Of a DNA stretch of 26,960 nucleotides, positions 7,038-26,102 are shown in pieces. The stretch lies in the NCBI GenBank assembly GCA_042568575.1, contig JBHPIO010000015.1, positions 1 through 26,960 on the forward strand, in the 5' to 3' direction. The notes under the pieces were generated by a model that ran no database searches, was not told the DNA's origin, and saw only the letters and a program-made list of their open reading frames with translations. Every line of letters begins with the position of its first letter. Positions within the stretch are counted from its first letter, which is position 1. The stretch is from Patescibacteria group bacterium. GTDB taxonomy: Bacteria > Patescibacteriota > Gracilibacteria > UBA1369 > PNNO01. The position numbers were made by a program, and so were the translations under genes.

Positions 7038-10000
7038 ATGGCAGCACAAAGAAACAGAAAGCTTAGAGATAATCTGCAACCAGAGGATGTTCACACTTTG
7101 GCTGAATATGCGGAGTATTGTTATGAGTCTAATAGTGCAGAGGCTCAGAGGATTCAAAATGATGCTGACAAACAAGATTTACTCGCATCAAGTGACAGTT
7201 ATCGTCAGTTAGCAGAAGAAATGAGAGATGCAATAGACAGAGGAACTCAATTTAAATCCCGAGGCGATTTAGAAAATCACTTTAATGCTAGAAGGGTTGA
7301 CTTTGATAAGGATCCTATAAGGACTAGTTTGATTAATTCTGCAAGAAGATATTTTAATGAGGCACTTAATGTTGCATCAAAAGTTTCATTTGATGTTGTT
7401 AGAGGAAATCATGATTTTCAGACTTGGCGTCAAAGTAAACTAGATTCACATGGTAATTTTATTAGTGCATTAAGTCCGAGCGTACCTTTCGGTGCAGATC
7501 CGGCTACAATTCCAACTTATGTAGAATTGAGACAGATGCAAAGGGATCTTTATGATAGGGAGCAGAATGTGGTTGCTGCAGAACAAGATGCGGCTCAAAA
7601 AGTATTAGATGCCGAACAAGCAACAGTGGATGCAAAACAATTAACACAGGAAGCAGAGCAAAAAGATCAAGAGGCTGAACAAAAGAAACAAGAAGTAGAA
7701 GCAAAAGAGCAAGATTTGGTTGCTAGAGAAGCACAACTTGCGGCAGGTTTACAGCAATTGGCACAACGAGATCAAGCTCAAAATCAACGTGAAGATGCAC
7801 TGAATCAACAAGAGGCAGGATTTGCACAAAGAGGTAGTGATTTAAATCAACGTGAGACCGATGCTTCACAACTTGAGGCTGGCTTGAATCAACGTGAACA
7901 GAATATCGGTCAGCAAGAAGCAGACCTAAATCAACGAGAGCAAGATATAGGTGATAAAGAACAAGTATTAATTACAAAAGGGGACGAAGCCCTTGCAAAA
8001 GAACGTGCCTTGGCAGCAAAAGAGCAGGAAGTAGCTGCACGGGAACAAAAGGCAAGACAGACGATGGATGAATTAGTTAATGACAGGAAAGAATTAGGAG
8101 AAAAAGAAGCACAACTTGCTCAGCGAGCAAGCGAACTTGATGCAAAAAGTGAAGCATTAAGGGTAGAGGCAGGTAGATTAGCTGCAGAAGATCAAAGGCT
8201 TCAAGATTTGGATGCGGAATTAACTCGACGTGAAGCAGCAATAGCTGGAGAAGGTGGTGAAACACCGACACCAGTTCCAACACCTGAGCCAGATGCTGAT
8301 TTAGCGAAACTAAGAGAAGAATTACAAAGAAAAGAGCGAGAATTGTCAGCTCTTCAGGTTCAATTAGATGGTAAAGGTGCTGAGCTTGACGCAAGAGAAA
8401 GTACAGTACAAGAAATGGAAAGATTACTAGAAGATAAGAAGACAATGCTTGCTGAGCAATCGGCGAGATTAGATGCGAGAAGCGCAGAATTAGATAGACG
8501 AGAAAGAGAAATAGCGGGTAAGGGTGGAGGAACACCTACTCCTGTTCCAACTCCAGAACCAGAACATGGTCCTGACACGGGTGGAGGAGCGCCTGAACCA
8601 GATCCACTTCTACCGCCACATCCAAAGCCTCCGGTGCCAAAGCCAAAGCCAAGGCCGGAACCAGAACCAGAACCAGAACCAGAACATGGTCCTGACACGG
8701 GTGGAGGAGCGCCTGAACCAGATCCAATTCTACCGCCACATCCAAAGCCTCCGGCGCCCAAGCCAAAGCCGGGAGTAGCAACTCCTGCTCCAGAACCAAA
8801 ACCAGCGCCAGAGCCAGAAGGTGGTGAAGCACCTGAACCAGCTCCAAAGCCGGCAGGACCGACACTAAAGCCGGGTGTAGCGAAACCATCAGGTGGAACT
8901 GAGCCAGAACCAGGTGCGGCAACTCCAACTCCAGCACCAAAACCATCTGCAGGTATTAAAGGAACAGGACCCGCAGAAGCTGCTCCAGAAACAACAACAG
9001 GATTAGATTTAGGTCCACATATTGAATTGGTAGAAGGTGTTATAAAGGTGCCAGTTGATAATTATTTTGAATCAAATAAGCGACCTGAGAACAAGGATAA
9101 GATTTTCGACTTCATGGATAAATATCGAACAGAGTTTCCTAAAAGTTTGCGAGAGAAACTAGGAGAGTTTGCTCGAGAAAAATCAGAAGGATTATCAAGT
9201 GCAGAAATAAGCGCACAAGTGAAAGCAATAATTCTTGAAGAAATGAAGCAAAGAATTAATGACGAATTATCAAGTACCGAAGAATTTCAACCAAGTGAGA
9301 GAAATGATTTTGCGGACAAGGTAGATGGAGTGCTCAAAGTACTAGGAGTGAGAATAAAAGGATCAGATGAAATAAAAGAATATTTAAAAGCTGACTACGT
9401 GAAAATGTGGTCGGAATTTAGCCGAACAATTAAAGAAAAAGATTACAAAGCAGAAGAATTACAACGATTTTTGTCTGATTGGGGAAGTGATAAACAGCCT
9501 GGTAGATTTGTAAGAGCAATCACTGCTGATTTAGAACGCGTGGGTGCCAAATTAGATGAATCGGAACTTGGTCAATTACAAAAAGAATATAACGCTTTAA
9601 AAGGTGATTTTGCATTTTGCAAAAGTTGTATTGAGTATACTGGGAAAGATTGGTTTGGACGCACAAAAGAAGATTGTATTCGAATATGGGGATTAAATGA
9701 GGATGCATGGGATGGGATTGGATCTGAATTGCCAGAAGAACTGGAAGAGGAATCGGGTGATGATGGCGGTGATACAGGCGGAGGAGCACCAGCTCCAGCG
9801 CCAACAGGAGGTGCAAAACCAACTCCACCACCGGCAGCAACTGGACCGATTCAACCAACACCTCCACCAGTTTCTCCACAGCCTGCTCCGGCACCTGAGC
9901 CTGAGCCAAAACCAGCGCCAGGCCCAACAGTGACAGATATAGAAGGTGAAGAACCAACTCCACCGCCAGAGGTGGATGTTAAAGGAGCAACAACTGCAGT

Positions 10001-12356
10001 GGCGCCAGAAACTACAACTGACAAAACTCCACTCAGAGAGATTATGGATGCGGCAGGAGAAACAGAGCCACCAAAAACACCGAATCAAGTTCTCAAGGAA
10101 ATTTTAGACAAAATACCTGCAACTTGGCCTGAACTTAGAAAAAAAATAAACGAAATTGAAATAAGAAAAGGGGAATCTTTAGCCGACTTGGAAAAAAAAG
10201 TAACCGAACTTATATCTCAAAGTATTACTATTTACTGGATGGAAAATTGGAATGGGCGTTATTTAAAAGGGGAGACAATCCCAAATGATGAGCGGGAAAG
10301 AATAGTTAGAAATATTAAAGGTACTTTGAAAATAATAGGCTTTCCGGCGGAAATGGTACCGAATTTTAGTAGAGAAAATGAAAGAGAATTCTTGAGACCG
10401 GTATTATTAGAACCGATAAAAGAAAGATGGATTCTATTTAAAGACTGGATAGAAAATCCTGATCCAGCAGAGGTGAGACTTACCAAATTTGATTCGAATT
10501 TGCGTAATTATGTAGGAAATGACTTGGAAGAATTGAATGCAAAATATGAAGATATTGAAGTAACTGATGATGAAATAGCAGCTTTAAAAGCACAACATGA
10601 AGCTTTATTAGATGATAGAGACTTTAGTAAGAAATGTATTGAGACACCAAGAAATTCAGGAAGAGATTGGAATTACCGTACAATGGAAAGCTGTATTAAT
10701 TTATGGGGAATTACTCAGGCAGACTGGGAGGCAGGAAGATTATATCCAGAAGAAGAACCAGTAGATGATGGAATTGATACAGGTGGGGGAACGCCAGAAC
10801 CAGAACCGGCTCCTACACCACAGCCAGCTCCAGCTCCTGCACCGAAACCAGAGCCTGCTCCGGCACCACAGCCGCAGCCTGAACCAGAACCTGCGCCAGC
10901 TCCAGAACCGCAACCCGAACCAGCCCCAGCCCCTCAACCTAGTCCAGTTCCGCCGGCAGGTGAAGTTCAACCAACACCTCAGCCTCCGGTTGGCCCAACA
11001 ATTATCGGTACGCCACCTCCAATAGGTGGGCAACCAATTCCGCCAGCAGCGCCAATTCCAGCGCCGGCTCCAACTCCTGAACCCGAGCCAGCACCGACAC
11101 CTCCACCGGCAGCAGAAGTCGCAGGTGAAGGCCCGTCGCCAGCTCCTAAAGCACAAATCGTAGATGGCGCAGAAGAAGAACCACCAACTCAACCTGAACA
11201 ACCAGAAGAAGAACCAGGGCTGGGACCAAAAGCTCCACCAGCATCTCCTCTAAAACCAGGAGGCGGAAAAGCACCGGAACCGGAAGGCAAAACAGCAGGA
11301 AAACCTGCAGATGTTGAACCAGAATCTGACGTAAGAGGACAAGGCCCGGAAGGCTTAGGAGAAATGAAAAGAGATGCGGAAGTTAGTGAAGAACGAGAAG
11401 CAGTAAAAGTATTAATTGCTACACTTAAAGGTCTTAAAGCAAATCAATTAAGAGAGGCAGGGAAATTACTAAAAGGGGAGAAAAAAGGGCTTAGAGATAT
11501 TGATCGTTTAGAAACAATCGCAACTTTAGTAAAAATCTTTGACTCTATAAAAGGTTTCTCAAAACAAGATCAGAGTGAATTTGAAGAATATCTTGATCAA
11601 CAAGCAATCGACCTCCCTGAAAATTTAGAAACTGTTGAGGCAGAAGCAAAAGCTCTTTATGGAAAATCTATTCCAGCAGTAAACGATGCAATCGGTAAAT
11701 ATTTAGAGGCAATCAAAGCAATCCGAAGGGAAGGTCTAAAAAAAGAAGCCGCTACAGCTGATTTAGACGAAGATTTCACAGCTGCTCCAGAAGGCTCTCC
11801 AGAAGCAGAATTCAAAAGAGCCGGCACAACAGACGTCGCTGGTGTATTGAGAGAGTACGATGTTCTTGAAGCAACGCAGGAACTTGAAGCAGCAATGAAG
11901 ACTATTGAGCCGTTTGTTCTTAAAAGGATAGGTAGCTTACTAGAAAAAGGTCAAACTCATGAGCATGCATTTCAATTAAAACACCTACTATCTTCTCTTA
12001 TTAAGTCACTTAATAAATTATATGAATTAGATCGAGAAAAATGGAGTGAAGAGCTTTTGTCGGATATTGATACTCGATTGGCAGGAATATGGGCTAATGA
12101 CGCAAACGAAACGAAATTCCTAGAAGATCTTGAAATTTTGAAAGGAGTTGATAAAACATCTTCAACTGCATTATTAGCACTTTTCAAACTAATCAAAGCA
12201 CTTGAGGCAAAAGGCAAAGCGCCTGGTTCAAAAAAAAAAGCTGAAACGCCGGAAGTAGAGCCATCATTTGAAGAAAAACTTGGAGGCTTGGATTTTAAAC
12301 GAATCCAGGCAGCGCGAGATGCAATTTCAAAATCTGATCCAGATAACGAATCTTAA
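7038..12356 (+). CDS. Giant acidic modular protein (1772 aa): coiled coil, Pro/Glu-rich linkers, duplicated globular domain
   Basis: Uninterrupted 5.3-kb ORF with 14-aa LNQ(R/Q)E repeats, PEP/PAP-rich linkers and two similar Cys/Trp-containing domains. No signal peptide or TM seen; no family recognised. Confidence 0.93.
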   Translation: MAAQRNRKLRDNLQPEDVHTLAEYAEYCYESNSAEAQRIQNDADKQDLLASSDSYRQLAEEMRDAIDRGTQFKSRGDLENHFNARRVDFDKDPIRTSLINSARRYFNEALNVASKVSFDVVRGNHDFQTWRQSKLDSHGNFISALSPSVPFGADPATIPTYVELRQMQRDLYDREQNVVAAEQDAAQKVLDAEQATVDAKQLTQEAEQKDQEAEQKKQEVEAKEQDLVAREAQLAAGLQQLAQRDQAQNQREDALNQQEAGFAQRGSDLNQRETDASQLEAGLNQREQNIGQQEADLNQREQDIGDKEQVLITKGDEALAKERALAAKEQEVAAREQKARQTMDELVNDRKELGEKEAQLAQRASELDAKSEALRVEAGRLAAEDQRLQDLDAELTRREAAIAGEGGETPTPVPTPEPDADLAKLREELQRKERELSALQVQLDGKGAELDARESTVQEMERLLEDKKTMLAEQSARLDARSAELDRREREIAGKGGGTPTPVPTPEPEHGPDTGGGAPEPDPLLPPHPKPPVPKPKPRPEPEPEPEPEHGPDTGGGAPEPDPILPPHPKPPAPKPKPGVATPAPEPKPAPEPEGGEAPEPAPKPAGPTLKPGVAKPSGGTEPEPGAATPTPAPKPSAGIKGTGPAEAAPETTTGLDLGPHIELVEGVIKVPVDNYFESNKRPENKDKIFDFMDKYRTEFPKSLREKLGEFAREKSEGLSSAEISAQVKAIILEEMKQRINDELSSTEEFQPSERNDFADKVDGVLKVLGVRIKGSDEIKEYLKADYVKMWSEFSRTIKEKDYKAEELQRFLSDWGSDKQPGRFVRAITADLERVGAKLDESELGQLQKEYNALKGDFAFCKSCIEYTGKDWFGRTKEDCIRIWGLNEDAWDGIGSELPEELEEESGDDGGDTGGGAPAPAPTGGAKPTPPPAATGPIQPTPPPVSPQPAPAPEPEPKPAPGPTVTDIEGEEPTPPPEVDVKGATTAVAPETTTDKTPLREIMDAAGETEPPKTPNQVLKEILDKIPATWPELRKKINEIEIRKGESLADLEKKVTELISQSITIYWMENWNGRYLKGETIPNDERERIVRNIKGTLKIIGFPAEMVPNFSRENEREFLRPVLLEPIKERWILFKDWIENPDPAEVRLTKFDSNLRNYVGNDLEELNAKYEDIEVTDDEIAALKAQHEALLDDRDFSKKCIETPRNSGRDWNYRTMESCINLWGITQADWEAGRLYPEEEPVDDGIDTGGGTPEPEPAPTPQPAPAPAPKPEPAPAPQPQPEPEPAPAPEPQPEPAPAPQPSPVPPAGEVQPTPQPPVGPTIIGTPPPIGGQPIPPAAPIPAPAPTPEPEPAPTPPPAAEVAGEGPSPAPKAQIVDGAEEEPPTQPEQPEEEPGLGPKAPPASPLKPGGGKAPEPEGKTAGKPADVEPESDVRGQGPEGLGEMKRDAEVSEEREAVKVLIATLKGLKANQLREAGKLLKGEKKGLRDIDRLETIATLVKIFDSIKGFSKQDQSEFEEYLDQQAIDLPENLETVEAEAKALYGKSIPAVNDAIGKYLEAIKAIRREGLKKEAATADLDEDFTAAPEGSPEAEFKRAGTTDVAGVLREYDVLEATQELEAAMKTIEPFVLKRIGSLLEKGQTHEHAFQLKHLLSSLIKSLNKLYELDREKWSEELLSDIDTRLAGIWANDANETKFLEDLEILKGVDKTSSTALLALFKLIKALEAKGKAPGSKKKAETPEVEPSFEEKLGGLDFKRIQAARDAISKSDPDNES
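8553..8770 (+). repeat. Intragenic 120-bp-period tandem duplication with a (CCAGAA)4 microsatellite
   Basis: 8553-8650 versus 8673-8770: 98 bp with 3 mismatches; CCAGAA four times at 8661-8684. Confidence 0.95.
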
Positions 12357-15300
12357 ATGACTGAAGAACCACAAGGACAATTAGATGATGTTCTGGAAAA
12401 ACTACAAGCCTTTGAAGGCCTGGATTCAGACCAAATTAGCCAATTGCTTGCAGAAAACGCTGAAGCATTACCTCAAGATTTAAATCCAATCAGACAAGAA
12501 GCAACAGAAAAGCTAGCAGAATTCGACGACGTTCTAGATATTGTAAATGGCTTCCTTACCGCAGTTCAACAAGTTCGTGATGCAAAAGGTGAAGCGCCAC
12601 GTGCAGCAGATACAGGTGCAGAAGAATCCGAAGAAGCAAAGATCGAAAGATTATCTAGACCAATAATAGCTGCATGCGAAAAGGTAAGGGAAAAGTTTAA
12701 ACGTATCACAATTCTCCCACGTACGTTGTTTGATGAGATTAGATCTGTTCTTGGTGAAGAATATGAATTTATAACTGATTATCTGTTCCATTATGCCGTT
12801 ATTCAAAAAGATGGTTATTCGTTTTTATTGCCAAATCCTCGTTCGATAGGAATTCAAGATCTTACTTATTCTAATTATGACATTATAGACTTAGGAGATC
12901 ATAGCTGGTTGCAAGACGATCACGAATTGTTAAAACTTGCATATTGTGAAACCAAAGATTACAAAGGTGAAAATAGCGAATTTGTAAAAGGACTTATTGA
13001 TAACAAAAATCCTGAGGCAGAATTAAAACGGGTTGTTTTAGAATTTATACGGGAATTAGAAGGGAATGAAATTCCGGATGATTTTGATGCAAGGAAAGAA
13101 TTTGAAGAAGCAATGGAGTCTGTTACTTCTGAAAAAATGTGGACTGTTTTAAGAAATTTTCAAGTTGATCACAGTGAAGAAGATGTGGGCAAAATATTGA
13201 TTTCTTTAATGAATAATATAATTGAATTATCCGAAAAAAAATTAGAATTAGAGAGGCTATTGGAATTGTCCAAAATGGCTTTTAAGCATCGTGTTCATAC
13301 TTGTGACAGAGATGACTTCGGTGGTTTAGTAGATCACTTAAGGAAAATTAATGATGAATCCCCTGAGTGCTCAAAGGCGATATTAGCCTTGCTCAAGGTT
13401 TATTTGAGAATAAAATCTGACTATGAGTCTGAAGCAGCCCCAAAATCTGAAGAATCAGCAGAAACCGCAGAAGAACCAAAAAAGCTAGTATTCCAGCAAT
13501 TAAAATATGGGAAAAAAGTTCAATATTCGGGTGGCCCTATTGTAAAGGGTTATGATCACGACCCTACTGGGGCATCAAAAGACTTTCCATTTAAACGTGA
13601 AGAATGGCGAGCTGTTTTCCCAGGGGTTCAAGGCTACAGTTCCAATTACCCATGGGAAGATGAAGGCGGCCAAATTCTTGTAAAGGAAATGGAACAAGAT
13701 GGGCAAAAATATATTGTTTGTCAAAGATATAAAATGCGTTCAGAAGGTGGCGACAGTGGACGTGGAAGAAATTATCATGAGCAACACTATATAGCAATTC
13801 CGGCAGAAGAGTGGTCAATTGCTGCTATTCCAAAACTTGCAGAAGTGTTAAGCACAACGCCAATTCTCCAGGACGATGATAAGAATTGGGAAATGTCGCC
13901 TATCGAGATTGAAGTTCCATTTGCAGATACAAAACTTCCGGAAGGTTGGTTTGATGAATATGTTCAGGATTTGGTTGCACATATTGTTTCAGGAAAACCA
14001 ATACAACTAGCGGATCCAGATATGAGCGAAAAAGAATTCTTGCAAAAGTTATACTATGCACTTTTGTGCGTTCCTCTATCAATTGCAAGCAAAATAACTT
14101 TTGGTACTGGACTTTATGATGAAGGTTCCAGATATAACGCGGATATTGCTCATTGTCGTGAAGCATCATATACCGGCGTAAGAAAAGTAGGCGGCGAATG
14201 GAAGGCATATTATGAGGGAGAAGATAGAGATGCTGCACGGAAAGCATATAATGAAAAAGCTAAAGATGATGAATTTGGAGGAAAATATATTAAGCATTTG
14301 AAAAAAGTAGGCGTAGATAAAGCCGAACAATTAAAAGACGTATTACAAGCAGTTCCAACCTTGCTAATAAGACGATCAGCTTATAAACGTTTTGGAATGA
14401 ACCCAGATACAAGCGGGGAAGAAGAGCTTGTTAAAGAGTGGGTGGAGGTGAAGGGTGCAAGTAGGGAAGCTCCAGTAGAAGCAGCCCCAGAATCCGAAGA
14501 AGCAAAAATCGAAAGATTAGGGAAACCAATCGCTGACGCCTGGAATAAAGTAAGACAAGAAAATGATATGTCCGTGCAAGGTATGGAAGAGGAAGCAATG
14601 AATAATCATGCGAATGAAATGATCAACAAGGTATTAGAAGAATTAGGCGATGAATATGAACTTATTGGAAGCCACATTATAAATGCCAACATCAGATCGG
14701 GAGATTATATCTTTATGATTACAAGCCCGGCATATGATGCTATTTGGCAGAAGACCGGTCCATATCAATCCTATGAATTGATTAACAGCGATGATGAACT
14801 TTATAACCTTGCAGCAAACTCTAAGCTAGTTAAACCTGCCTATTGCAAAGTTGAAGATTTCAGAAACCAACCTTTTAAAGACGATATCTACGAAAAAGGC
14901 TTAATAGACGTCAATCCTGAAAGAGAGGTTAAAGGTGCGCAGTCGGAAGCTGCAGAACTAGCAGAAGAGGAAGCTAAGTATACAAAGATACTTATGGATG
15001 CATACGAGGAAGTATATGCCGAAATTCAGGCTCAAATTGAAAGTGATCCAGACTTACAAGGAGTCGAAGGAAGAGAGAAAAGAAATATTCTTGAAAGTCC
15101 AAATAAACATTACCAACTAAATTTTACAAATTTGCTTTATGAAAAATTCCCAGTAGAGTTCCCAATACACCCTGGCTACTATTTCGGACACCTTATTCTC
15201 CCATCCGGCAGAATGTTGGTTTTTTATAATCCGTTTTCAACAAGACATATAGTAGAGGTAAGCAAATACTTTGAAGGAACAAATGGCGAAGATGATTTTG

Positions 15301-15488
15301 ATATTAATGAACCACTTGATTACAAAATGCTTAAGCCGGCAATTATTGATAAAATAGATTGGGAAGATCCTAAATTTGCTAGATTTAAAGCTCTCGGGCC
15401 TACAAGGGATTCACATACTATCGATAGTGGACTATGCCATGTTATATCTCCCGGGTTAGTTGAAAGTAGGAAAAAAGAAGATGTTTAA
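12357..15488 (+). CDS. Large acidic modular protein (1043 aa) with a repeated domain and a possible GAP1/DENN-like central domain
   Basis: Uninterrupted ORF starting immediately after the previous stop in the same frame. Repeated ESEEAKIERL...LG(E/D)EYE...K(L/P)AYC...KGLID units. Confidence 0.92.
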   Translation: MTEEPQGQLDDVLEKLQAFEGLDSDQISQLLAENAEALPQDLNPIRQEATEKLAEFDDVLDIVNGFLTAVQQVRDAKGEAPRAADTGAEESEEAKIERLSRPIIAACEKVREKFKRITILPRTLFDEIRSVLGEEYEFITDYLFHYAVIQKDGYSFLLPNPRSIGIQDLTYSNYDIIDLGDHSWLQDDHELLKLAYCETKDYKGENSEFVKGLIDNKNPEAELKRVVLEFIRELEGNEIPDDFDARKEFEEAMESVTSEKMWTVLRNFQVDHSEEDVGKILISLMNNIIELSEKKLELERLLELSKMAFKHRVHTCDRDDFGGLVDHLRKINDESPECSKAILALLKVYLRIKSDYESEAAPKSEESAETAEEPKKLVFQQLKYGKKVQYSGGPIVKGYDHDPTGASKDFPFKREEWRAVFPGVQGYSSNYPWEDEGGQILVKEMEQDGQKYIVCQRYKMRSEGGDSGRGRNYHEQHYIAIPAEEWSIAAIPKLAEVLSTTPILQDDDKNWEMSPIEIEVPFADTKLPEGWFDEYVQDLVAHIVSGKPIQLADPDMSEKEFLQKLYYALLCVPLSIASKITFGTGLYDEGSRYNADIAHCREASYTGVRKVGGEWKAYYEGEDRDAARKAYNEKAKDDEFGGKYIKHLKKVGVDKAEQLKDVLQAVPTLLIRRSAYKRFGMNPDTSGEEELVKEWVEVKGASREAPVEAAPESEEAKIERLGKPIADAWNKVRQENDMSVQGMEEEAMNNHANEMINKVLEELGDEYELIGSHIINANIRSGDYIFMITSPAYDAIWQKTGPYQSYELINSDDELYNLAANSKLVKPAYCKVEDFRNQPFKDDIYEKGLIDVNPEREVKGAQSEAAELAEEEAKYTKILMDAYEEVYAEIQAQIESDPDLQGVEGREKRNILESPNKHYQLNFTNLLYEKFPVEFPIHPGYYFGHLILPSGRMLVFYNPFSTRHIVEVSKYFEGTNGEDDFDINEPLDYKMLKPAIIDKIDWEDPKFARFKALGPTRDSHTIDSGLCHVISPGLVESRKKEDV

Positions 15489-20101: not shown

Positions 20102-20130
20102 TTGAAAAAAACCTCATTTTTTGCTATAAT
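20102..20130 (+). promoter_or_regulatory. Sigma70-type promoter of mscS
   Basis: TTGAAA, 17 nt, TATAAT with extended TG. Confidence 0.8.
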
Positions 20131-20152
20131 TAACAGATTAAAAAACAAAAAT

Positions 20153-21262
20153 ATGCTCGATTTCTTACTAAACATACAAACCGCATTTGCTCAGGTCACT
20201 ACAGGATCTGTAACCGGCGAAACAGAAACGCAGCTTTCAGGGCTATTAGAATTTTTCCTCATAAAAATTCCTTCCTTTATTGCAGCAATCATTGTTTTCG
20301 CACTCTTTTACCTGCTTTCAAAGGCCATAAAGGGGATTGTGGAATCAAGACTTTCGCAATCATTGGAAGAAAATAAGGAAGTTCAGATACTTGCAGGACG
20401 AACAGCAGCAACAACAACCGTTATCATCGGTGCGACAGTAGCGTTAAACATCGCGGGAATCGACCTGACAGTGATAATCGCTGCAGCCGGTTTCGGTGTA
20501 GGTTTCGCTTTAAAAGACATCATAATAAACTTTTTTGCTGGAATAATGATCCTTGCGCAGAAGCAGTTCACAATTGGAGACTTTATTAACGTAGAGGGCA
20601 CAATCGGAAAAATCGTAGAGATCCAAACTCGTGCGACTATCCTTCAAGCTCTTGATGGAACAAAAGTAGTCGTGCCAAACTCGGAACTATTCTTAAAACA
20701 AGTTACCAGCTACACAAGCAACGCATTCAGACGAATCGAAGTAGTGGTTGGTGTTGAATACGATACAAACCTCAACCAAGCAGTTGAGACATGTTACGCA
20801 GCAATTAAAGGAACAAATGGCGTTCTAATAGAGCCAAAACCAGCGGTTCTTGTAGATGAATTCTCGGATAGCTCGATCAGTCTAATCGTTCGAGCGTGGG
20901 TAGAATCACGAAGCGGATGGCTTCAAATAAAGAGTGACCTTGCTGTAAGCATCAAAACAGAATTTGATAAAGTTGGTATTGGCATTCCATTCCCAATCCG
21001 TACAATTGTTTATGATAAAGATGCTAAGGCGGAAAAAGCAGCAAAGCCAGCATGGGTTGCGCAGGAACCAAAACTGGAAGCAGTTCCAGTCCCAGCAGAG
21101 CCTCAAGTAGCGCCAGCAGCTCAGGCACCAGTTCAAGGTCAAGCAGTCCCAGTAGCGCCAGCTGCACCGGCAGTTATACCGCAGGCAGTAACAAAACCTT
21201 CAAAAGATCAGCCGGGTTCAGCCTTCCTAATTGGAAATCCAGAAGATAAAAAAGAATCTTAA
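20153..21262 (+). CDS. mscS: Small-conductance mechanosensitive channel family protein with Pro/Ala-rich tail
   Basis: GFGVGFALKDIIINFFAGI, FTIGDFI, VVVPNS, V.Y.T and GIGIPFP motifs. ATG 20153 chosen because the TTG at 20102 is part of the -35 box. Confidence 0.93.
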   Translation: MLDFLLNIQTAFAQVTTGSVTGETETQLSGLLEFFLIKIPSFIAAIIVFALFYLLSKAIKGIVESRLSQSLEENKEVQILAGRTAATTTVIIGATVALNIAGIDLTVIIAAAGFGVGFALKDIIINFFAGIMILAQKQFTIGDFINVEGTIGKIVEIQTRATILQALDGTKVVVPNSELFLKQVTSYTSNAFRRIEVVVGVEYDTNLNQAVETCYAAIKGTNGVLIEPKPAVLVDEFSDSSISLIVRAWVESRSGWLQIKSDLAVSIKTEFDKVGIGIPFPIRTIVYDKDAKAEKAAKPAWVAQEPKLEAVPVPAEPQVAPAAQAPVQGQAVPVAPAAPAVIPQAVTKPSKDQPGSAFLIGNPEDKKES

Positions 21263-21323
21263 CCTTTCGTCCTCTCGTTACTTTCATAAGGACTCATCAG
21301 TACCGTTTTTAACGGTAGAGGTT
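21261..21323 (-). ncRNA. Type III hammerhead ribozyme
   Basis: Minus strand reads AACC-UC^-UACCGUU-aaa-AACGGUA-CUGAUGA-GUCCU-(uau gaaa gua acgag)-AGGAC-GAAA-GGUU. The CUGAUGA/GAAA/UH core is complete, with stem I 7 bp, stem II 5 bp and stem III 5 bp. Predicted cleavage after C at 21318. Confidence 0.9.
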
Positions 21324-21503
21324 GGGGACTAGTGTTCGGAATCGCGGTCTATAAGACCGGCCTACTTGACGAACGTCCCCCTTTTTTTGTTGGCAGTGCT
21401 CCTGTCCCCGAGTAGGCGAAGCATCGTTGCCGGTGATTACCTCACTATTGGTGCCGGCTTCCCGACTCTATGACATAACGCTGTGAGGCATAACTGACGG
21501 TAC

Positions 21504-21533
21504 CTAATTGGGGTGCAAATCATGATAATTCAT
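21504..21533 (-). CDS. Mini-ORF 2, MNYHDLHPN
   Basis: AAAGGAGG 6 nt upstream of ATG; 9 codons then TAG. Translation unproven. Confidence 0.35.
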   Translation of the reverse strand: MNYHDLHPN

Positions 21534-21579
21534 GCTTGCCCTCCTTTCGTAGTGAAAGTCAGTTCCTCATTTGATGCGC

Positions 21580-21609
21580 TCAAACGGGGACAAAAGCGAT
21601 TTTGTTCAT
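21580..21609 (-). CDS. Mini-ORF 1, MNKIAFVPV
   Basis: AGGAGGT 4 nt upstream of ATG; 9 codons then TGA. Translation unproven. Confidence 0.35.
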   Translation of the reverse strand: MNKIAFVPV

Positions 21610-21634
21610 TGGCACCTCCTATATGCACATATTA

Positions 21635-21663
21635 TTTTTAACATAAAATACGAAAGATGTCAA
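21635..21663 (-). promoter_or_regulatory. Putative promoter of the hammerhead-terminated RNA
   Basis: Perfect TTGACA (21663-21658), 17 nt, then TAAAAA with extended TG; the -10 box is imperfect. Confidence 0.55.
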
Positions 21664-21763
21664 TGCTCGTTGGAATTACACTAATTTTATCACATATTAC
21701 AACTTTTTGGTTGATAAAAGTCCATCGTGGTGCTAGTTTGTTGCCCGGTATTTTTAGAGATAT

Positions 21764-21791
21764 AAAGAAAAACCCTCATCTAAGATGAGGG
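21764..21791 (-). terminator. Intrinsic terminator
   Basis: CCCTCATC-tta-GATGAGGG hairpin followed on the minus strand by TTTTTCTTT. Confidence 0.8.
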
Positions 21792-22157
21792 GAAAAAATT
21801 CAATTCTATCAATCGAGTTTATTAGAAAAACGACTGAGAATCATGCGAATTTTGTTTTTGTTTTACGGTGACCAGTCCATATTTTTGTTTTTGCTTTGCT
21901 TTGGCATAGTTTTTAGTCGTGCCACCGACCGTCTGTTTAGTGTGCGATCTCAAGTAACCGAAGCTACAAGGATGCACCAGACAAAAGTGAGCGGTCCAGT
22001 TGGTCAGGAAAGGGCCATCACAGAGCAAAAAATGAAACCAATTGAAAACTTCAATTAGTGCACACTTTCTGCTATGCTTATCGCGGTCTGATTTTCAAAG
22101 GTCTGATACTAGGCTCGACAAGGGCATCATATAATCTGTATCTTTTATCGAGCGTTT
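21768..22157 (-). ncRNA. Putative ~390-nt structured RNA (class not recognised)
   Basis: Bounded by a near-consensus promoter and an intrinsic terminator, with no convincing CDS. Has a cUUCGg tetraloop hairpin (21954-21967), a long G-U-containing hairpin (22024-22073) and a 5' stem (22145-22153/22113-22121). Confidence 0.6.
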
Positions 22158-22163
22158 CATGTC

Positions 22164-22192
22164 AGTATATAAAATTAGCCCACGCGAGTCAA
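22164..22192 (-). promoter_or_regulatory. Sigma70-type promoter pointing into the intergenic region
   Basis: TTGACT (22192-22187), 17 nt, TATACT (22169-22164). Confidence 0.75.
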
Positions 22193-22230
22193 AGTATACG
22201 CCTAGACACATTCTTTAAAACCATTGTACG

Positions 22231-22977
22231 TTGGAAATAAAAGGAGTAAAAACCCGCATAATAAAGGAGAAAGACGACCTTTTCGAAGTCTTAAAAGAAT
22301 CTCTAAAAAAGAGCAAAATTAAGCTCAAAGAGAAGGATGTTTTAGTGATCGCATCAAAGGTTTTAGCCGTTACTCAAGGCAGAGTCGTGCCGGTAAAAGA
22401 CCTCGACTACAAGAAAGGTCATTTAAAAGAGATAATTCAAAAGGAAGGCGGCATGCTATTCGAAACAAACTATTGCTGGTTAACCTTTAAAGATGGACAC
22501 TTAATCCCAAACGCAGGCGTAGACAAGTCAAACGTAGAAGAAGGCAAAGTAATTCTCTGGCCAAAAAACATAATAAAGGAAGCACGAGAAATCCAGGAAA
22601 AATTACGCAAAGAATACAAACTCCGCAACTTAGGCGTAGTAATATCAGACTCAACAACAGCGCCACTACGGTCGGGCGTACATGGAATATCACTCGGATC
22701 ACACGGATTTGAAGCAGTAGAGGACTGCCGCGGAACAAAAGACATCTATGGGAAGAAAATCAACATAACAAGACGAGCAATGGCCGACAGCCTAGCAACA
22801 GCCGCAATAATCGTAATGGGCGAGACAAACAACAAGATGCCATTCGCAATAGTACGCGGCGCACCAGTCAAATTCACAAACAAAAAACTGCGAAGACACT
22901 TTATCCGCTTGAAATCGGACTTATTCTACGGTATGTATAATAATGCCTTTAGAAAATTCCTATCACGCAAAAAATAA
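22231..22977 (+). CDS. Coenzyme F420-0:L-glutamate ligase (CofE) family protein, possibly a folate gamma-glutamyl ligase (FolC2-like)
   Basis: DVLVIASKV, PNAGVDKSN, GVVISDS..PLRSG, G.KDIYG, ADSLATAA and MGE motifs; TTG start. Confidence 0.88.
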   Translation: MEIKGVKTRIIKEKDDLFEVLKESLKKSKIKLKEKDVLVIASKVLAVTQGRVVPVKDLDYKKGHLKEIIQKEGGMLFETNYCWLTFKDGHLIPNAGVDKSNVEEGKVILWPKNIIKEAREIQEKLRKEYKLRNLGVVISDSTTAPLRSGVHGISLGSHGFEAVEDCRGTKDIYGKKINITRRAMADSLATAAIIVMGETNNKMPFAIVRGAPVKFTNKKLRRHFIRLKSDLFYGMYNNAFRKFLSRKK

Positions 22978-22978
22978 T

Positions 22979-23584
22979 ATGTTCAAAATCGCGGTACTCG
23001 CATCAACAAACGGCACAGACCTCCAAGCCATCATCGACGAAATGAAAGCCGGCAAAATGGAAGGGATTGAACTTACTTGTGTTCTTAGCTATAAAGAATG
23101 CAAGGCAATAGAAAGGGCAAAGGAAGCAGGGTATGATGCAAGAGTTCTTGGTTCAAAATTTGATAGCAGAGAGAAGTTTGAGATAGCTGCTAAGAATATT
23201 CTCAAGGAGAAAGGCGTGGATCTAGTCTGTTTGATTGGATATATGAGAATATTAAGTGATTGGTTTATAGACGAATTTGATATGAAAATCATAAATGTCC
23301 ATCCGGCAATAGACATGGAAAAGTACGGAGGAGAAGGTTTTTTTGGGGGAAATGTTCATAAAGCAGTGCTTGAGGCTGGTGAAAAGGAAACTGGATGTAC
23401 AATTCATTATGTGACAAAAGAAGTTGATGCTGGTCCTCCAATTGATAGTGAGGAAGTTGAAATTTTACCAAATGACACAGTAGGTACACTTAAAGATAAA
23501 GTGCAGGCATGCGAAAAGAGACTATATCCAGAAGTGATTAGAAAAATAGCAAAAGGAGAATATGTTATGAAGTTACGTTTATGA
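22979..23584 (+). CDS. purN: Phosphoribosylglycinamide formyltransferase
   Basis: IAVLAS.NGTDLQAII, GYMRIL, INVHP and GCTIHYV...VDAGP motifs; ATG 22979 just after the previous stop. Confidence 0.95.
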   Translation: MFKIAVLASTNGTDLQAIIDEMKAGKMEGIELTCVLSYKECKAIERAKEAGYDARVLGSKFDSREKFEIAAKNILKEKGVDLVCLIGYMRILSDWFIDEFDMKIINVHPAIDMEKYGGEGFFGGNVHKAVLEAGEKETGCTIHYVTKEVDAGPPIDSEEVEILPNDTVGTLKDKVQACEKRLYPEVIRKIAKGEYVMKLRL

Positions 23585-24923: not shown

Positions 24924-26102
24924 TTAAGTTACGATATCAGAGAGGCGATCTGATTCTACCGCATCTTTGATTTCCATTGCAATTCTTTCGCCGTAACTTA
25001 CGCTTTTGCCATACAAATATCCTGAGTAAGGTGTGAATGGTGTCCCAGGCGATCCCGGAATTCGCATACTTACGTCAAATATCACGATTTCTTCTTTTCC
25101 ATGATCTGCTGAGATAGCTCCTTGTAATGCAAAAGGTCCAACCATTCCAGGCGCGACTTCTTTGTCCATTGTTGCAACGAACTTTTCACCGGCTTCAAAT
25201 GCCTTTTCTACGATAGATTCCTTCACAGTGCACGAGATATGTCCTGTCTCGATCATTTTTGGCTTATATCCGCTTTCTATTAGTTTTGTCTGGACAACTG
25301 CGTCGAGTCTTAAAAATCCGTCTAGTGACGTCTGTCTTCGTGTGTCAGTTCCTAGCAATTCGAGTTCTTTGGTGAGTGGCGAATAAAAATAGTTGAAATT
25401 TACTTGTGCTCCAATAATAAATTCTTCAATTACCGCGTTGTCGAGGTCTTCTTTTGTGATTAGACCTTTTTCGATCATATCCGAGCTAATTTCTTTAAAC
25501 TCTGTTGTTTTAGTTATTGTGAAGAAAGCTCTTTCGTAACCACGAATTGCCTCATTTACTTTGATTAATAGTGGTCCGCCATTGTTATCAAAATGTTTGT
25601 CCATTGCTTTTTGAGCCTCTTCGTCATTCATTCCGCTATCTCCCGGACGAATGATTCCCGGAATTCTAATCCCAGCCTTAACCAATAATTCATATTGATT
25701 GTTTGGCTGATCACGTTCTTCAAGTCTAACTAGCACTCTGTTTCCATAAATCGGAACGTTGAATTGCTTTTCAATAAGGTCAAAGTCCTTGAAGTACACC
25801 CAAAAGTATCTGTTGTGAATGAAGACGGTGTTTCTTTTGCGAAGTTCTTCTTGAATGTCTTCGTTTACGATGTCCGCGAACTTATCTACAACAATCACAT
25901 CATCGATGCAGCCTTTGCCATCGCGGCTTTTGTAATATTTGGCATATGTCTGTTCGCGGCCTTTTTGGCAAACCGCAAGGGTTTTAAATCCGAGCTTTTT
26001 AGCTCCAGCGCAAACGTCCAAAGCGCTGTGTCCACCAAGCACACCGATTGTAATTTGTGAGGTGTCGTAGCCCTTAAGTACGTCTAAAATTTGATCTTTC
26101 AT
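24924..26102 (-). CDS. PurP-family ATP-grasp protein (PurP-like paralog, DUF1246/DUF1297)
   Basis: GGHSALDV, GYERAFF, IEEFIIG, DTRRQTSLDG, GHISCTVKES, GPFALQ and FDVSMRIPGSP motifs. Confidence 0.88.
   Translation of the reverse strand: MKDQILDVLKGYDTSQITIGVLGGHSALDVCAGAKKLGFKTLAVCQKGREQTYAKYYKSRDGKGCIDDVIVVDKFADIVNEDIQEELRKRNTVFIHNRYFWVYFKDFDLIEKQFNVPIYGNRVLVRLEERDQPNNQYELLVKAGIRIPGIIRPGDSGMNDEEAQKAMDKHFDNNGGPLLIKVNEAIRGYERAFFTITKTTEFKEISSDMIEKGLITKEDLDNAVIEEFIIGAQVNFNYFYSPLTKELELLGTDTRRQTSLDGFLRLDAVVQTKLIESGYKPKMIETGHISCTVKESIVEKAFEAGEKFVATMDKEVAPGMVGPFALQGAISADHGKEEIVIFDVSMRIPGSPGTPFTPYSGYLYGKSVSYGERIAMEIKDAVESDRLSDIVT

Follow-up and report, generated by a model that had tools for sequence, protein, structure and literature searches.

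A previously undescribed family of large structured RNAs in Peribacteria and related Gracilibacteria

The window examined here is a 26,960-nucleotide (nt) stretch of a Patescibacteria group bacterium genome (contig JBHPIO010000015.1). Between the genes for an MscS-type channel and a cofE-like protein it carries a minus-strand element that comparative analysis has shown to be a predicted, independently transcribed gene for a non-coding RNA (ncRNA) of ~395 nt, the A-type member of a family of 390–540-nt RNAs. The family has not been described before and is a new one among the large structured bacterial ncRNAs of unknown function. A sequence-only reading of the window had noted a promoter and a U-tailed hairpin around this unit. 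Both signals were located, and the bracket that they form on the minus strand encloses ~395 nt. The features of the locus are listed below.

22192–22164, minus strand: sigma-70-type promoter, with -35 box TTGACT (22192–22187), a 17-nt spacer and -10 box TATACT (22169–22164)
21764–21792, minus strand: intrinsic terminator, CCCUCAUCUUAGAUGAGGG and then a U tract
20102–21262, plus strand: MscS-type channel gene, flanking the RNA gene and convergent with it
22231–22977, plus strand: cofE-like F420-ligase-family gene, flanking the RNA gene and divergent from it
22943–23584, plus strand: purN, divergent from the RNA gene
21259–21325, minus strand: hammerhead type III-like site, 36.5 bits, below the gathering score of 48.5

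The promoter (TTGACT-17-TATACT) matches 10/12 consensus positions and predicts a transcription start at about 22160–22157 on the minus strand. TTGAC and a TATA -10 box stand in register in 11/11 family sequences that extend this far, and comparable promoters lie 120–270 nt 5' of the conserved core in most of 84 homologues. The terminator is a GC-rich 8-bp hairpin at 21791–21773 followed by TTTTTCTTT. Its position is kept in 12/12 family orthologues, each of which has a GC-rich hairpin and a U tract, with stem sequences that differ.

The minus strand folds with a minimum free energy (MFE) of -105.7 kcal/mol (z = -3.81 relative to dinucleotide shuffles), and 0/100 shuffles were as stable. Folding of the plus strand gave z = -0.23. 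These values fit the earlier claim that G-U pairs favour the minus strand. Three open reading frames (ORFs) of 68, 71 and 60 amino acids overlap the RNA region. None is conserved: in relatives, even in a genome of the same genus, stop codons or frameshifts in the orthologous DNA interrupt all three. The sequence-only reading had seen no credible protein gene here and had named conservation of a ~70-amino-acid ORF as one result that would refute it; the interrupted frames agree with its view.

A DNA search of 60 relatives recovered an orthologue in 12/12 family genomes (68–92% identity). The orthologues share promoter, terminator and gene neighbours, and they line up at both promoter boxes (-35 and -10), at the 5'-terminal AUGAAAC and at the terminator. 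From 32 core sequences a covariance model of 146 positions and 23 pairs, R1, was derived. Against this model the RNA of the window reaches 131.8 bits, and it has all core elements at the coordinates listed below. R1 matches 87/151 genomes of the order, representing 15/19 families, with at most two matches per genome and two copies in 33 genomes. In the class sample 16/151 genomes were matched, 7 of them from three families outside the order and with the hallmark motifs kept. The phylum sample gave matches in 4/151 genomes, and outside the class there was just one weak 27-bit match. The proposed hallmarks of the family are the closing helix Y:Z, the junction GAUGG, the GAC of the Pa loop, the Pb arm, the pseudoknot GGUC/GACU plus UGGC/GCCA, and CCAAAG.

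Pattern scans of public contigs were also carried out. Of ten matches in metagenome contigs six were true homologues, and the chance matches L042, L045, L046 and L047 were dropped. Most of the 51 matches in genome contigs were chance matches in unrelated phyla. Those with Candidate Phyla Radiation (CPR) titles were from Candidatus Peribacteria, Peregrinibacteria, Gracilibacteria or Patescibacteria group entries, the titles being used as a taxon label only and the matches not being individually model-checked. Collections of phages and plasmids gave no match. Families f1 and f2 keep the gene order MscS, RNA, cofE-like, purN, and adjacency to MscS or purN was also observed in members of f3, f7 and f17. 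The kept gene order across families argues for an old, vertically inherited gene. Comparative data have shown a family that is vertically inherited in the Peribacteria/Peregrinibacteria order and has weaker relatives in other orders of the Gracilibacteria (CPR/Patescibacteria).

The structural elements of the RNA are listed below from the 5' end.

22077–22160, minus strand: 5' domain, defined by alignments, with AUGAAAC conserved at its 5' end, one or more variable hairpins, and CCUUUGAAAAUCAGAC (22086–22101) as a conserved tract
22066–22076, minus strand: strand X, CAUAGCAGAAA, complementary to strand Y
22032–22065, minus strand: hairpin Px, with compensatory changes in a 12-sequence alignment
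22015–22032, minus strand: strand Y and the junction GAUGG, UUUUUUGCUCUGU; Y is UGCUCUG at 22020–22032
21993–22016, minus strand: hairpin Pa, with a near-invariant GAC in the loop (UGACCA, 22001–22006) and covariation in the stem
21931–21982, minus strand: long arm Pb, GUCUGGUG...CAC...CAGAC, here capped by cUUCGg (21958–21963)
21902–21930, minus strand: H-type pseudoknot, stem S1 GGUC (21927–21930) with GACU (21915–21918), stem S2 UGGC (21921–21924) with GCCA (21902–21905)
21906–21914, minus strand: A-rich third loop of the pseudoknot, AAAAACUAU
21892–21901, minus strand: strand Z, AAGCAAAGCA, which closes the core by pairing with Y (helices 1–2)
21864–21881, minus strand: hairpin Pc, whose loop UGGUCA (21869–21874) pairs through GUC with the Pa loop
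21847–21864, minus strand: motif M, a single-stranded A/C-rich tract, AAAACAAAAACAAAAUUC, conserved in A-type, family-f2 and B-type RNAs
21803–21841, minus strand: hairpin Pd, AUUCU-CAGUCG...CGAUUG-AU-AGAAU, with the conserved bulge/tract UUGAUAGAAU

In the core, the closing helix Y:Z encloses Pa, Pb and the H-type pseudoknot with its A-rich third loop. At the junction, GAU and AAA residues, both unpaired and invariant, lie opposite each other; this GAU is the same in 32/32 sequences. The conserved single-stranded A/C-rich tract that flanks the core carries AAAACAAAAACAAA. Strand X has an identical sequence in 12/12 family members, and the helices of the 5' domain differ from genus to genus.

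Two kinds of alignment were used to examine covariation. A MAFFT alignment of 12 sequences has 58 predicted pairs, 18 of them compensatory. The sequence-only reading had described a ~50-nt hairpin and a long arm with a cUUCGg cap, which correspond to Px and Pb, respectively, and both bear compensatory changes; in Px these join alignment columns 114–127 to 149–161 (for example GC:7 AU:5, and GC:5 AU:4 CG:2). The second alignment fitted 84 core sequences to R1, and pairs were counted in the helices of the model and in pseudoknot stem S1, which was entered by hand. Standard pairs were found in 95.3% of 2192 cells, as against a shuffled mean of 79.8%, and 24/27 pairs showed change on both sides. 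None of 500 shuffles attained any of five pairing measures, and slid controls were 31–44% paired. Every pair of Pb (helices 3–5) has both-sided changes, with 90–98% of cells paired. The pseudoknot stems (helices 6 and 7) are paired in 96.0% and 95.8% of cells and show double changes (for example CG:46 UA:20 AU:12), and the helix that Z forms with the inner CUG of Y covaries strongly (UA:56 GC:12 AU:10 CG:3). Pair counts based on MAFFT agree in kind with those of the model-fitted alignment.

The loops of Pa and Pc were then compared. The Pa loop triplet is GAC in 73/84 sequences, and where it varies to AAC or UAC the Pc loop has the matching GUU or GUA. Across lineages GAC/GUC changes to AAC/GUU, UAC/GUA and AGACC/GGUCU. 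With loops anchored to the core, cognate pairs of loops from the 84 homologues gave a mean of 4.99 contiguous pairs compared with 4.24 for permuted pairs (standard deviation 0.13, maximum 4.64; 0/1000). An unanchored version of the kissing-loop test gave 5.95 versus 5.60 and did not discriminate. The stem around the Pc loop was supported in the same way (4.06 cognate versus 3.00 permuted, 0/1000). For the outer helix of Pd, 42/63 sequences have a 5-of-5 complement, compared with a permuted mean of 27.1 and a maximum of 37 in 1000 permutations, and its outer strands are AUUCU/AGAAU in A-type and AUCUU/AAGAU in B-type RNAs. RNAalifold on a MAFFT alignment of the 3' domains recovered the terminator alone, Pc and Pd being shifted between subtypes.

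The Pa/Pc pairing had been put forward as UGACCA/UGGUCA in the sequence-only reading. Its GAC/GUC core pairs in 12/12 family members, with C-G replaced by U-A in 3, and it outperforms the permutations. Two other pairings from the same source did not survive. The GAUAC/GUAUC pseudoknot pairs in 2–5/12 family members depending on position, and its 3' partner falls mostly in alignment gaps. ACGACU/AGUCGU pairs in 2–10/12, with the central A-U in 2/12, and its halves belong instead to the covarying pseudoknot stem S1 and to hairpin Pd. Both are present in the window sequence and are not kept in relatives. The observation as a whole therefore stands for the unit, its promoter and terminator and three of the pairings, and, beyond this one sequence, not for these two.

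The Pa-Pc contact is either an intramolecular kissing interaction or possibly one between molecules. A passage of PMC12286853 reports that a kissing loop of ROOL, which covariation had at first led workers to take for a tertiary contact, is in fact intermolecular. By analogy, the Pa-Pc contact could be of the same intermolecular kind.

A profile search of the genome (1.2 Mb in 31 contigs, 82% complete) revealed a diverged, older paralogue, the B-type, at C12:85651–86133 on the plus strand (E 8.7e-21; locus L031, 1224–1706). It too lies between a consensus-like promoter and a terminator, and it is present in 12/12 family genomes. The B-type shares the core and the 3' domain with the A-type. Its 5' half bears several AAACAAAAA-like tracts, where the A-type has essentially one A/C tract. 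Its neighbours encode a DinG-like exonuclease/helicase, a PEMT/ICMT-like methyltransferase and CarA. In a tree of the 84 cores, computed from ~150 columns without support values, the A-types of f1 and f2 cluster, and the f1 B-types cluster with the second copy of an f2 genome and others. There is a hint here that the A/B duplication may be older than the families. In one genome, G140, two cores lie ~430 nt apart (C42:74396–74554 and 74824–74986, both minus strand), in tandem rather than as the usual dispersed pair.

The A/C tracts raise the question of a protein-sequestering sponge of the CsrB/CrcZ/6S kind, in which repeated AAAACAAAAA tracts would titrate a regulator that binds single-stranded RNA and the two paralogues would resemble CsrB/CsrC or CrcZ/CrcY. 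The conserved tract in the A-type, the several tracts in the B-type and the presence of two paralogues per genome speak for such a role. CrcZ/CsrB-type RNAs also share a length of ~400 nt, repeated A-rich single-stranded motifs and their own promoter and terminator, and a faint match to CrcZ (RF01675; 14.3 bits, E 0.24) covers 21783–21922. That match comes from the A-rich part, however, and is far under the gathering score of 95. The known sponges lack a conserved pseudoknotted core, and the A-type would have essentially one tract with which to titrate a protein. The A/C 14-mer has 7 exact copies in the 1.2 Mb, of which 2 are in the two RNAs; most of the others fall within coding regions or where these begin. 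We consider a sponge unlikely. A sponge for Hfq was rejected, as no Hfq was found in this 82% complete genome. The A/C motif was likewise rejected as a genome-wide signal, its copies outside the RNAs having no pattern. A table of PMC10783764 places Candidatus Peribacter among the organisms that are scarce in Shine-Dalgarno sequences and lack CCUCC; mimicry of an A-rich leader is therefore conceivable.

Known RNA families were sought with Rfam 15 (4227 models) at the gathering score, at E <= 10 on positions 21200–22300 and at E <= 1 on 20 diverse homologues. At the gathering score there were 0 matches across the whole window and 0 in 5 homologous loci. The search at E <= 10 returned, besides the neighbouring hammerhead-like site, only terminator-driven or A-rich chance matches, and that at E <= 1 only 4 unrelated matches at chance level. 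RAGATH-11 (15.2 bits, E 7.2) fell at 21301–21386, outside the RNA. No match was obtained to the large-ncRNA families OLE, ROOL, GOLLD, raiA and HEARO, so far as Rfam 15 includes them. Searches of the full-text literature found no report of a large structured RNA of Peregrinibacteria, Gracilibacteria or Patescibacteria; supplements, such as the motif lists of Weinberg-type surveys, were outside the scope of this search and could affect the claim of novelty. These phyla are absent from the main text of PMC5737381.

An RNA of this length, with pseudoknots, its own transcription unit and lineage-wide vertical inheritance, resembles RNase P RNA and tmRNA, and one could suppose a highly diverged housekeeping RNA, whether one of these, 6S RNA or the RNA of the signal recognition particle (SRP). 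The genuine genes are elsewhere in the genome, however: RNase P RNA (RF00010) at C23:119243–119620 (168.8 bits), tmRNA (RF00023) at C26:47449–47884 (113.7 bits) and 6S RNA (RF00013) at C26:55754–55907 (51.7 bits). None of the three models matched the locus at E <= 10. ARAGORN found 0 tmRNA genes in the window, and inspection of the RNA revealed neither a tRNA-like end nor conserved regions of the P4 type. The SRP slot did seem empty, as RF00169 was matched in 0/13 family genomes and 0/61 order genomes and RF01854 was not found in the own genome. No SRP RNA model matched 21200–22300 at E <= 10, and a motif scan for a hairpin like domain IV of SRP RNA gave 4 weak matches elsewhere in the genome and 0 at the locus. 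The Ffh M domain (PF02978) was found in 0/13 family genomes, in 0/151 class genomes above the cut-off and in 0/151 phylum genomes, while 14/14 control genomes were positive. The SRP54 GTPase domain (PF00448) gave just an 18.5-bit, sub-threshold match in this genome (G000).

Identity with SRP RNA was rejected, since the Ffh M domain is missing in the family, class and phylum samples and no SRP model touches the locus. The idea that the RNA replaces the SRP was rejected as well, because SRP loss is phylum-wide and the RNA is confined to one class; the loss is therefore unrelated to the RNA. The housekeeping explanation is largely refuted and its likelihood minimal. The sequence-only reading had pointed to Rfam and the housekeeping RNAs as comparisons to make; no family fits the locus. 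The conservation, the covariation, the Rfam searches and the presence of RNase P, tmRNA and 6S genes elsewhere strongly support an orphan ncRNA unit that is neither a protein gene nor a divergent housekeeping RNA. As an observation apart, the SRP system seems to be missing across the family, order, class and phylum samples. This agrees with PMC8080830, according to which many CPR bacteria lack SRP subunits.

The RNA gene diverges from the cofE-like/purN pair, as the sequence-only reading had it, and the strands bear this out. Adjacency to MscS, the cofE-like gene and purN is kept across several families, and the RNA might then be a cis- or antisense regulator of one of them, such as a divergent-promoter RNA linked to the metabolism of purines or folate. 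Vertical descent alone predicts conserved gene order, however. The RNA runs towards MscS and is encoded on the strand opposite to cofE/purN. It overlaps neither gene and is bracketed by a promoter and terminator of its own, and the B-type has the same core among unrelated genes. Cis regulation is very improbable. A PurP-type gene (DUF1297/DUF1246) lies at 24924–26102 on the minus strand and gives the neighbourhood, with purN and the cofE-like gene, a purine/folate flavour. PurP is the archaeal-style enzyme for the FAICAR (5-formamidoimidazole-4-carboxamide ribonucleotide) step.

The hammerhead-like site is ~440 nt downstream of the RNA, in a unit with a putative promoter at 21663–21634. The sequence-only reading had placed the two RNAs in tandem and suggested that they may form one system, to be judged by their co-occurrence in relatives. 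The tandem holds in this genome and in no relative examined. The ~500-nt hammerhead block (21263–21763, taken as 21250–21670 in the test of co-occurrence) had no blastn match among the loci of the 26 relatives that were searched, and this genome has it in a single copy; in a same-genus genome the MscS end is ~8 nt from the RNA terminator. From these comparisons the hammerhead unit looks like a recent, genome-specific insertion between MscS and the conserved RNA gene. Because the block is unmatched in the relatives' loci and single copy, and the RNA gene is old and order-wide, the two RNAs are not one system. The interpretation offered in the sequence-only reading is thus supported as regards an orphan, structured ncRNA unit of ~390 nt and not as regards a joint system. 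The same data bear on the proposal that the region encodes an ORF of ~60–70 amino acids or is part of a mobile element with the hammerhead unit. The three overlapping ORFs and the proximity of the hammerhead-like site could suggest this, but the stops and frameshifts in relatives, the unmatched block, the fixed syntenic position and the lack of a phage or plasmid match refute it, and its probability is practically nil.

What might the RNA do? The rigid core, the covarying loops, the A/C tracts, the strong and constitutive-looking signals and the one or two fixed copies per genome are the grounds for proposing a trans-acting component of a ribonucleoprotein (RNP) or of an RNA-only assembly. The RNA would be a stable, housekeeping-type molecule acting in trans, most likely as the scaffold of such an assembly. 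The pseudoknotted core would hold the molecule in a fixed shape, with the exposed A/C-rich tracts and the invariant bases of the junction as contact sites for a partner. It would neither regulate its neighbours in cis nor take part in the hammerhead unit. We regard this explanation as a whole, an undescribed ncRNA family with a trans-acting, stable RNA scaffold, as very probable.

The core also invites a comparison with catalytic RNAs. In complexity and conservation it is closer to large ribozymes or riboswitch aptamers than to sponges, and the RNA is order-wide and vertically inherited. If the RNA were a ribozyme, whether acting in trans or processing itself, the active site would be the doubly pseudoknotted core with its invariant residues at the junction (GAU, AAACAG, CCAAAG). 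On the other hand, the sequence points to no reaction and to neither a substrate nor a cleavage site, none of the known ribozyme families matches, and a promoter and a terminator, not processing sites, set the ends. A ribozyme is distinctly unlikely.

Several points weigh against the scaffold explanation and the evidence on which it is built. The start, ends and abundance of the RNA are all predicted, and a partner protein is hypothetical. The two paralogues have different neighbours, all of them ordinary genes of metabolism or repair, so the context offers no functional clue. The fold is more ornate than a simple sponge needs, and an RNP scaffold is therefore the least specific of several possibilities. 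Fitting the 84 sequences to the model inflates the percentages of paired cells, an effect that is reduced but not eliminated by the slid controls and by MAFFT alignments made independently of the model. In its outer four pairs Y:Z overlaps with X:Y. MFE folds pair the UGCU of Y with X in 35/36 full-length homologues, and X and Z both change along with Y in B-type sequences, so that either the outer pairs are spurious or there are two alternative states. Finally, R1 has no match in four families (f4, 0/8; f6, 0/3; f12, 0/1; f15, 0/16), where the RNA is therefore lost or dispensable, or has diverged past the reach of the model.

The closest parallels to a scaffold of this kind are OLE, ROOL, GOLLD and raiA. 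Like the RNA here they stand alone, are several hundred nt long, have many covarying helices, pseudoknots and loop-loop contacts, and are of unknown function. The RNA here differs from them in having no Rfam 15 match, in being confined to CPR Gracilibacteria/Peregrinibacteria and in having two old paralogues. It has a fixed chromosomal place, whereas ROOL and GOLLD are found in prophages, and it is smaller than OLE, ROOL and GOLLD. A bolder proposal is that it is a fifth 'core' RNA of the Peregrinibacteria/Gracilibacteria, essential, abundant and catalytic or self-assembling. Such an RNA would have arisen and been duplicated early in the class and would do a task that others give to proteins, with the junction as its active or binding centre and the Pa-Pc contact joining A-A or A-B oligomers. 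This proposal is doubtful, with some chance of being right.

Large, highly structured new bacterial RNAs are rare, and RNase P, tmRNA, OLE, GOLLD, ROOL and raiA each opened work on RNA catalysis, RNPs or RNA-only assemblies. The biology of the CPR is known almost only from protein gene content. With a covariance model, at least 84 aligned sequences and a pseudoknotted structure, the family is a target for cryo-electron microscopy, probing and metatranscriptome mining. The RNA is also a marker gene for Peribacterales genomes and a test case for the use of RNA by reduced-genome symbionts. If it were catalytic or oligomeric, the catalogue of natural RNA machines would be widened.

The enclosing helix of the RNA, its H-type pseudoknot, in which one loop is A-rich, and its single-stranded C/A-rich tract are reminiscent of a template-pseudoknot core, as in telomerase RNAs and the template RNAs of reverse transcriptases (RTs). 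The difference is that the A/C tract here is outside the enclosed core and no RT gene is adjacent. A template or telomerase-like role was rejected, the only RT in the genome being on a separate small contig. This sole RT is an RVT_1 domain (62.7 bits; C24:695–1327, minus strand) in a 419-amino-acid ORF on a contig of 2291 bases, and is possibly a retroelement or defence RT.

Elsewhere in the window, positions 7038–15488 on the plus strand hold two very long adjacent ORFs (1772 and 1043 amino acids). Over the same interval the AT skew is unusual, reaching up to 0.42, and the local GC content rises to 0.50.

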